Below are positions 10,363 through 10,487 of a stretch of 60,967 nucleotides of DNA, in pieces. Position numbers and translations under genes: made by a program. The stretch's first letter is position 1, and each line of letters starts with the position of its first letter. The stretch is taken from assembly GCA_012026655.1 (NCBI GenBank), contig JAAILG010001849.1, forward strand, positions 1-60,967. The letters are read 5' to 3'. Below the pieces are notes generated by a model. The model saw only the letters and a program-made list of their open reading frames with translations. It did not search any database and was not told the DNA's origin. This DNA is from Hydrolagus affinis (Eukaryota).

Positions 10363-10487
10363 CACGGATAGGGAAAAACAAGAGGAAGAAGGCTTCAGAG
10401 GATGGACAGGTATGCCCACTGTGCAATGCCGCACTCTCTGGAACAGTGGAGGAGATGAGTAGGCATGTGGAGGCCTGCCTGGATAAG
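10363..10487 (+). CDS. RNF220: RNF220 coding exon (first in window), long form; internal alternative donor at 10409/10410
   Basis: Acceptor ttttgtcttccag|CA. Reads (A)RIGKNKRKKASEDGQ-VCPLCNAALSGTVEEMSRHVEACLDK, resembling the vertebrate RNF220 ARIGKMKRRKQDEGQ segment. Donors CAG|gtatgc (10409) and AAG|gtagtc (10487), both phase 0. Confidence 0.9.

Follow-up and report, generated by a model that had tools for sequence, protein, structure and literature searches.

Background

RNF220, a human disease gene, acts in the patterning of the neural tube, and the removal of protein domains by splicing is common. The closest described event is the alternative splicing of human RNF220 exon 7, which separates isoform 1 from isoforms 2-4 (Choi et al. 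2025, PMC12296455; bioRxiv 10.1101/2025.04.07.647521). In the part of that report dealing with exon 7/8, RT-PCR yields a product of 146 bp from isoform 1 and one of 224 bp from isoform 4, which differ by 78 nucleotides; isoform 1, with the shorter product here, is stated to be the form studied in earlier RNF220 work. According to the same part, isoform 1 is restricted to the brain in mouse and becomes more abundant during neural differentiation and in neural stem cells, and a short isoform is ubiquitous (PMC12296455). The splice event is thus already known, having been annotated and measured in human cells (PMC12296455). That portion of the report presents the isoform difference as an N-terminal deletion and does not describe the 26 residues encoded by the 78 nucleotides as a domain; the words "zinc" and "UBZ" are absent from the text of the Choi et al. 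preprint.

The second group of relevant systems consists of the ubiquitin-binding zinc fingers. In the WRNIP1/RAD18 group, a Pro-Val loop (Pro21-Val22 of WRNIP1) contacts Ile44 of ubiquitin and Asp37 contacts Arg42, as set out in part of PMC4370504. Replacement of this Asp by Ala abolishes binding in Mgs1/WRNIP1-type fingers (PMC3245944, in part). The same section of PMC4370504 describes FAAP20/Pol eta UBZ fingers, which bind via helix residues and lack the Pro-Val loop, and a UBZ group that has neither set of contacts.

The RNF220 family has been described from vertebrates and arthropods in the covered part of the Tey preprint; Drosophila RNF220/CG4813 and Tey are grouped with the RNF220 domain, PF15926. 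Pfam describes no internal finger in PF15926. That part of the Tey preprint mentions a stretch absent from AlphaFold's mouse isoform, possibly the same 26 residues, and names none as a finger. In our search of the RNF220 literature, no paper was found that names the 26 residues a zinc finger or UBZ; subscription papers, the Ma and Mao 2022 review, InterPro and UniProt may carry such an annotation. The parts of PMC7311976, PMC12383448, PMC7288745 and PMC12501224 that were covered contain nothing on a 26-residue finger. Recognition of the removed piece as a UBZ4-related finger may accordingly be new.

We describe herein a 60,967-nucleotide stretch of Hydrolagus affinis DNA (the window), which is a whole contig and carries the 3' half of RNF220a. 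We lean, if only slightly, toward a reading in which two in-frame donors keep or remove one ancestral UBZ4-related finger that likely still binds ubiquitin weakly.

Results

Two in-frame donors bound a complete finger

The RNF220a features of the window, all on the forward (+) strand, are as follows.

10363..10409, +, constant part of the RNF220a exon (47 nt), with the basic stretch RIGKNKRKK before the finger
10407..10415, +, upstream, finger-removing donor CAG/GTATGC, 7/9 to the U1 consensus
10410..10487, +, 78-nt alternative extension encoding a complete CCHC, UBZ4-like finger (Cys 10413, Cys 10422, His 10464, Cys 10476)
10485..10493, +, downstream, finger-keeping donor AAG/GTAGTC, 5/9 to the U1 consensus
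13485..13623, +, shared downstream exon (RDGS...EEYEWCGQKRIR...), RNF220 domain core
21686..21782, +, coding exon, followed by a U12-type intron with a GC donor
22378..22464, +, coding exon
23193..23248, +, coding exon
23862..23943, +, coding exon
39556..39664, +, coding exon, coiled coil and start of the RING
47711..47785, +, coding exon, middle of the RING
56722..56793, +, last coding exon to the stop codon, end of the RING

The initial annotation had proposed two phase-0 donors 78 nucleotides apart, and both could be located by direct reading of the sequence, with GT at 10410 and at 10488. The exon starts at 10363 (AG at 10361-62), so that its length is 47 or 125 nucleotides depending on the donor, and both donors share the acceptor of the exon that opens at 13485. 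Translation of 10410-10487 yields 26 residues with the proposed pattern C-x2-C-x13-H-x3-C. The GTA codon that opens the extension does overlap a donor, as had been noted; the label "proximal" given to that donor does not fit, because it is the upstream one. In the usual splicing terminology, the upstream of two alternative donors is the distal one.

Joined to the eight downstream exons, either donor gives a stop-free reading frame. The upstream donor leads to a protein of 253 amino acids that is identical to the Heptranchias skip form at 250/253 positions, and the downstream donor to one of 279 amino acids, 277 of which are identical to Callorhinchus isoform X5. The host gene has a PF15926 domain and a C-terminal RING, as do members of the RNF220 family, and the 26 residues map inside PF15926 at profile positions 110-132. 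Over 41 residues the window protein is 98% identical, not fully identical, to Callorhinchus milii RNF220a. No RNF220a exons before 10363 were found within the window; the exon at 10363 appears, by inference, to be the equivalent of human exon 7. Judged by size and position, and from the part of PMC12296455 noted above, the human exon 7/8 event would be the same as that at the window's donors. The 26 residues also stand at the corresponding place in human isoform 2 and in the 308-aa mammalian short form.

The upstream donor is the stronger of the two in its match to U1 (only 47 of the 3683 GT sites in the window score at least 7/9), and the downstream donor, which lacks a G at +5, is the weakest of the nine donors scored in RNF220a. 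At 6/9 or better there are 217 GT sites in the window, 59 of which are followed by 78 stop-free bases and three of which have a second GT at +78 with 78 open bases between. In the upstream donor, the GT belongs to a Val codon and the +5 G is supplied by the second base of the first Cys codon, so the cut would fall exactly at the start of the finger. The CCHC motif occurs once in the six frames of the 61 kb window, at 10410-10487. A genome search with the 26-mer likewise found this place alone, a result that comes from one scored candidate and is not a paralogue census.

RNA reads cover the alternative and shared exons on the sense strand in three runs, all from one sample of another organism. 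Binned depth (7-42, as distinct from junction counts) from that other organism points, weakly and indirectly, to inclusion of the 78-nucleotide extension at about half in run X3 and 60-100% in X2 and X4.

Several further features of the locus were observed. GCATG pentamers lie at 10463-10467, inside the extension, and at 10499-10503, 12 nucleotides past the downstream donor, among 33 in the window. GCATG is the RBFOX core motif; RBFOX control of the donor choice is a lead only, for which a literature search gave no support. Past the downstream donor, the read-through resembles that of a skate-like Logan record, a hint that an intronic element is conserved there. High-copy interspersed repeats occupy about 10000-10180, 12550-12810, 13100-13480 and many other places, where DNA contigs and both-strand RNA reads are heavy. 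The RNF220a intron at 21783-22377 (595 nt) carries U12-type signals, namely the GC donor ACA/GCATCCTTA, the branch motif TCCTTAAC at 22358 and an AG end. In RNF220 of human and mouse there is a minor intron with ACA/GTATCCTTG (PMC6717393, in part), and the GT has therefore apparently changed to GC in the window, as a variant or an assembly error. At 54451-54552, an in-frame 34-codon cassette exon, annotated in Callorhinchus, splits the RING between zinc-ligand pairs. At the RING-splitting position, the cassette found in sharks and skates differs in sequence, and other models skip the middle RING exon; these cassette and skip forms are possibly RING-inactivating isoforms.

Both forms are annotated throughout jawed vertebrates

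Vertebrate RNF220 proteins (184, of which 13 were left unscored) were tallied for the 26 residues. They are present in 127/171 scorable records and absent, at an identical G-Q/R junction, in the other 44/171; since these are redundant gene models and not read counts, and since the queries contained the finger, the ratio is uninformative, and it is the shared junction that carries meaning. Skip forms are annotated in Callorhinchus, many sharks and rays, coelacanth, newt, gecko, birds, crocodilians, turtle and two teleosts, and both forms are annotated from chimaera to birds with the same junction. The reading frames and the orthologue annotations together bear out, for jawed vertebrates, the earlier proposal that donor choice yields RNF220 isoforms with or without a complete CCHC finger. 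As far as sequences and annotation can tell, the splice choice is real and old.

The short-form records mostly include the 26 residues (51 of 55, the other four skipping them), and the long-form records are split, with 42 of 82 including them; donor and promoter thus appear to be linked loosely at best. Strict coupling of donor to promoter was considered and is ruled out by the four skipping short-form and the 42 including long-form records. The initial annotation had pointed to similar long isoforms in other vertebrates. The finger is no mere extra of rare long isoforms, in that it is ancestral and is kept in the short, ubiquitous isoform; the form lacking it is probably the derived one.

The long RNF220 forms of vertebrates and invertebrates contain a second finger-like motif, C-P-x-C-x11-H-x3-E (residues 223-244 of P0017), encoded by an upstream exon outside the window. 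Its Glu is a possible fourth ligand. The similarity of this CCHE motif to the finger is weak, at a median of 15.7 bits in 56 segments; Asp occupies the key place in 1/56, and the motif gave no match when searched against PDB. Since long forms carry this motif, their skip form is not free of finger-like motifs.

One alternative, which we consider very improbable, is that spacing matters and the finger does not. Skipping would then put the basic, NLS-like stretch beside an acidic tract and so alter localisation or partner binding. The basic stretch does end six residues before the finger, the next exon does start with an acidic tract, and partial loss of that stretch changes where human isoform 4b localises and how it binds WDR5 (PMC12296455, in part). 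However, the same part of that report describes isoforms 1 (skip) and 4a (include) as having the same nuclear ring pattern and as both being strong WDR5 binders, and a mere spacer would leave unexplained why the zinc ligands are invariant as far as fungi.

By profile, the finger is nearest to UBZ4 fingers

The finger was compared with known structures by means of a profile of 25 rows (A3), hand-chosen among finger-bearing homologues, against 177,635 PDB sequences. The top matches were Pol kappa (1.1e-6), RAD18 (3e-6 and 7.2e-6) and WRNIP1 (1e-4), and the first classical finger ranked behind these four UBZ4 matches, at 4.8e-4. The significance of this match owes much to the invertebrate and fungal rows, which were selected for having the finger; the single window peptide reached only E 0.18 against Pol kappa. 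No UBZ Pfam model scored above its cut-off with the window peptide, and UBZ_FAAP20 and zf_UBZ matched 3/25 and 1/25 homologues, at E 0.03 and 0.002, respectively.

AlphaFold predicts a separate beta-beta-alpha module of two short strands and a helix, with pLDDT 92-93 over the finger, within a range of 88-93, and flanks of 56 before and 47-50 after; for the finger alone, pLDDT is 83. Fold searches with 33 residues reached a best Z of 3.5 with no E below 0.001, and UBZ and classical beta-beta-alpha fingers tied. The match to RAD18 (2MRF) had Z 2.3 and rmsd 2.6 over 31 aligned residues, a domain too small for ranking. Similarly, FAAP20/Pol eta UBZ structures (3WWQ, 3WUP; PF15750, PF18439) are alike in fold, with rmsd 0.7 over 29 columns for 3WWQ, which is not significant, and their sequence match to the finger profile is weak (E 0.87). 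The ESM Atlas placed the finger closest to RNF220 clusters (0.87-0.89), followed by a zf_UBZ cluster at 0.81, the latter being a lead only. The nearest Pfam and fold neighbours also include fingers that do not bind ubiquitin, namely ZNF512 C2HC, Sgf11 and MOZ.

The finger shares with RAD18 (2MRE, 2MRF, 5VF0), WRNIP1 (3VHS, 3VHT) and Pol kappa (7NV0) the CCHC ligands in the pattern C-x2-C-x(11-14)-H-x3-C of the UBZ4 RAD18/WRNIP1 group, a C-P-hydrophobic-C loop (C-P-L-C in the window), an H-x3-C-L end and the beta-beta-alpha fold, here predicted. RNF220 is, like RAD18, a RING ligase with a single finger. On the other hand, the finger of the window has H-V-E and not H-[LV]-D, and it can be removed by splicing. 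The UBZ4 Asp two residues after His is replaced by Glu in the window and in 133/134 jawed records. The Asn two residues before His, present in RAD18, WRNIP1 and both Pol kappa fingers, is Ser in the window and in 129/134 jawed records. Its spacer of 13 differs from that of RAD18 and WRNIP1 (11) and of Pol kappa (14). In non-jawed fingers, the residue two after His is D in 45, E in 43, N in 18 and another residue in 9 of 115 sequences; in fungal-type fingers, chosen by the pattern C-[FC]-x-C, Asp is found in 20/20 and Asn in 18/20, without Pro. The earlier assignment as a RAD18-type UBZ4 signature is upheld insofar as UBZ4 is the nearest family by profile, but the Asp-to-Glu and Asn-to-Ser changes and the absence of any passing UBZ Pfam model argue against a full assignment. 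Because the defining Asp is missing, we file the sequence as a UBZ4-derived CCHC finger rather than a UBZ4.

These same substitutions raise the possibility, which we hold to be rather doubtful, that the toggle is real and regulated and that the vertebrate finger no longer binds ubiquitin, serving instead to bind another protein (a substrate or cofactor) or to shape the RNF220 domain. The drift at the Asp position among non-jawed homologues and the ZNF512 C2HC, Sgf11 and MOZ neighbours are consistent with such a loss, and a UBZ group without either contact set does exist (PMC4370504, in part). Nonetheless, jawed vertebrates keep the Pro-hydrophobic loop, an acidic residue two after His and the Cys-Leu end, the host is a ubiquitin ligase, and UBZ4s head the profile search. 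For ubiquitin binding as such, the chances would be about even.

The finger is ancestral and the upstream donor is probably younger

A profile search of representatives at 50% identity was used to trace the finger outside jawed vertebrates. Among the best 150 of 1027 representatives, 96 non-jawed sequences contain the downstream anchor preceded by 60 residues or more, and the CCHC finger is present in 94 of these 96, from lamprey through invertebrates to fungi. The carriers include lamprey, amphioxus, Lingula, cricket, Drosophila suzukii, Priapulus, starfish and tick, as well as the fungi Spinellus, Dipsacomyces, Calocera and Neoconidiobolus. One of the two exceptions has a longer spacer, and the other is a whitefly isoform in which 23 finger residues are deleted. 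The Cys/His pattern is conserved across jawed vertebrates and in 94/96 non-jawed homologues (within the best 150 of 1027). The four zinc ligands are invariant in 80 rows chosen for having the finger, and the window finger scores 46 bits against a finger profile made without jawed vertebrates. On these homologues, the finger is the ancestral state, back to fungi.

Several fungal RNF220-like proteins (P0257, P0264, P0305 and P0311) are annotated as "hypothetical" or as RING-type only, and mostly have a textbook N-x-H-[IV]-D-x-C-L finger. In Bemisia tabaci (whitefly), one predicted isoform model (P0255, P0357) drops the 23 finger residues from the Val of C-P-V-C. This finger-removing splice is apparently independent of the one in jawed vertebrates.

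Gln-Val precedes the first Cys in 134/134 jawed records and in 2/115 others. Together with the ancestral finger and the strengths of the two donors, this pattern suggests that the downstream donor is probably the older of the two and that skipping is new to jawed vertebrates. The dating is tentative, because the lamprey "Rnf220-like" records may be a paralogue.

If the donor is spelled by codons, the skip form could also be a tolerated by-product of splicing, the choice having no selected function and the donor being kept by protein conservation. We regard this as improbable. The Val codon would fix the GT and the Cys codon the +5 G, nearby residues are well conserved too in jawed vertebrates, and the whitefly model, with another Val-codon donor within the finger, shows that such donors arise easily. 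Yet human isoform 1, the brain-restricted reference isoform that rises in neural differentiation, is the skip form (PMC12296455, in part), the junction is identical in annotations from chimaera to birds, and Gln-Val is invariant where the residues immediately upstream are variable.

Discussion

The RNF220 finger toggle is not a new kind of system. The reading toward which we lean, a finger that is kept or removed by donor choice and binds ubiquitin weakly, can be put as a sequence of steps. The upstream donor would have arisen early in jawed vertebrates, because the Gln-Val-Cys codons (CAG GTA TGC) spell a strong donor at the first residue of the finger. The finger would act as a ubiquitin reader for the finger-bearing ligase, and the skip form would be a ligase without a reader. 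The module is predicted to sit between flexible linkers; its Pro-Leu loop may contact the Ile44 patch of ubiquitin, and Glu may replace Asp in meeting Arg42. Such a reader could help RNF220 to dock on ubiquitylated partners or to extend chains. In this scheme, the skip form would correspond to the neural isoform 1, and the finger-bearing set would include the ubiquitous short isoform (terms of PMC12296455, in part).

A wider claim, which is possible though somewhat doubtful, is that RNF220 forms an unrecognised, opisthokont-wide RING-plus-UBZ4 reader/writer family, and that an internal donor evolved by jawed vertebrates strips the reader from the neural isoform.

A donor that removes a domain cleanly can come about from the very codons with which a finger begins. 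The fungal-type fingers, which keep the textbook UBZ4 signature, provide a ready positive control. If the 26 residues are a working reader, isoform differences now blamed on the missing N-terminus would have a second cause. Moreover, if the wider claim is true, nearly all RNF220 studies would have been done with a derived isoform that lacks the reader and that differs in chain-building or targeting from the ubiquitous finger-bearing form.
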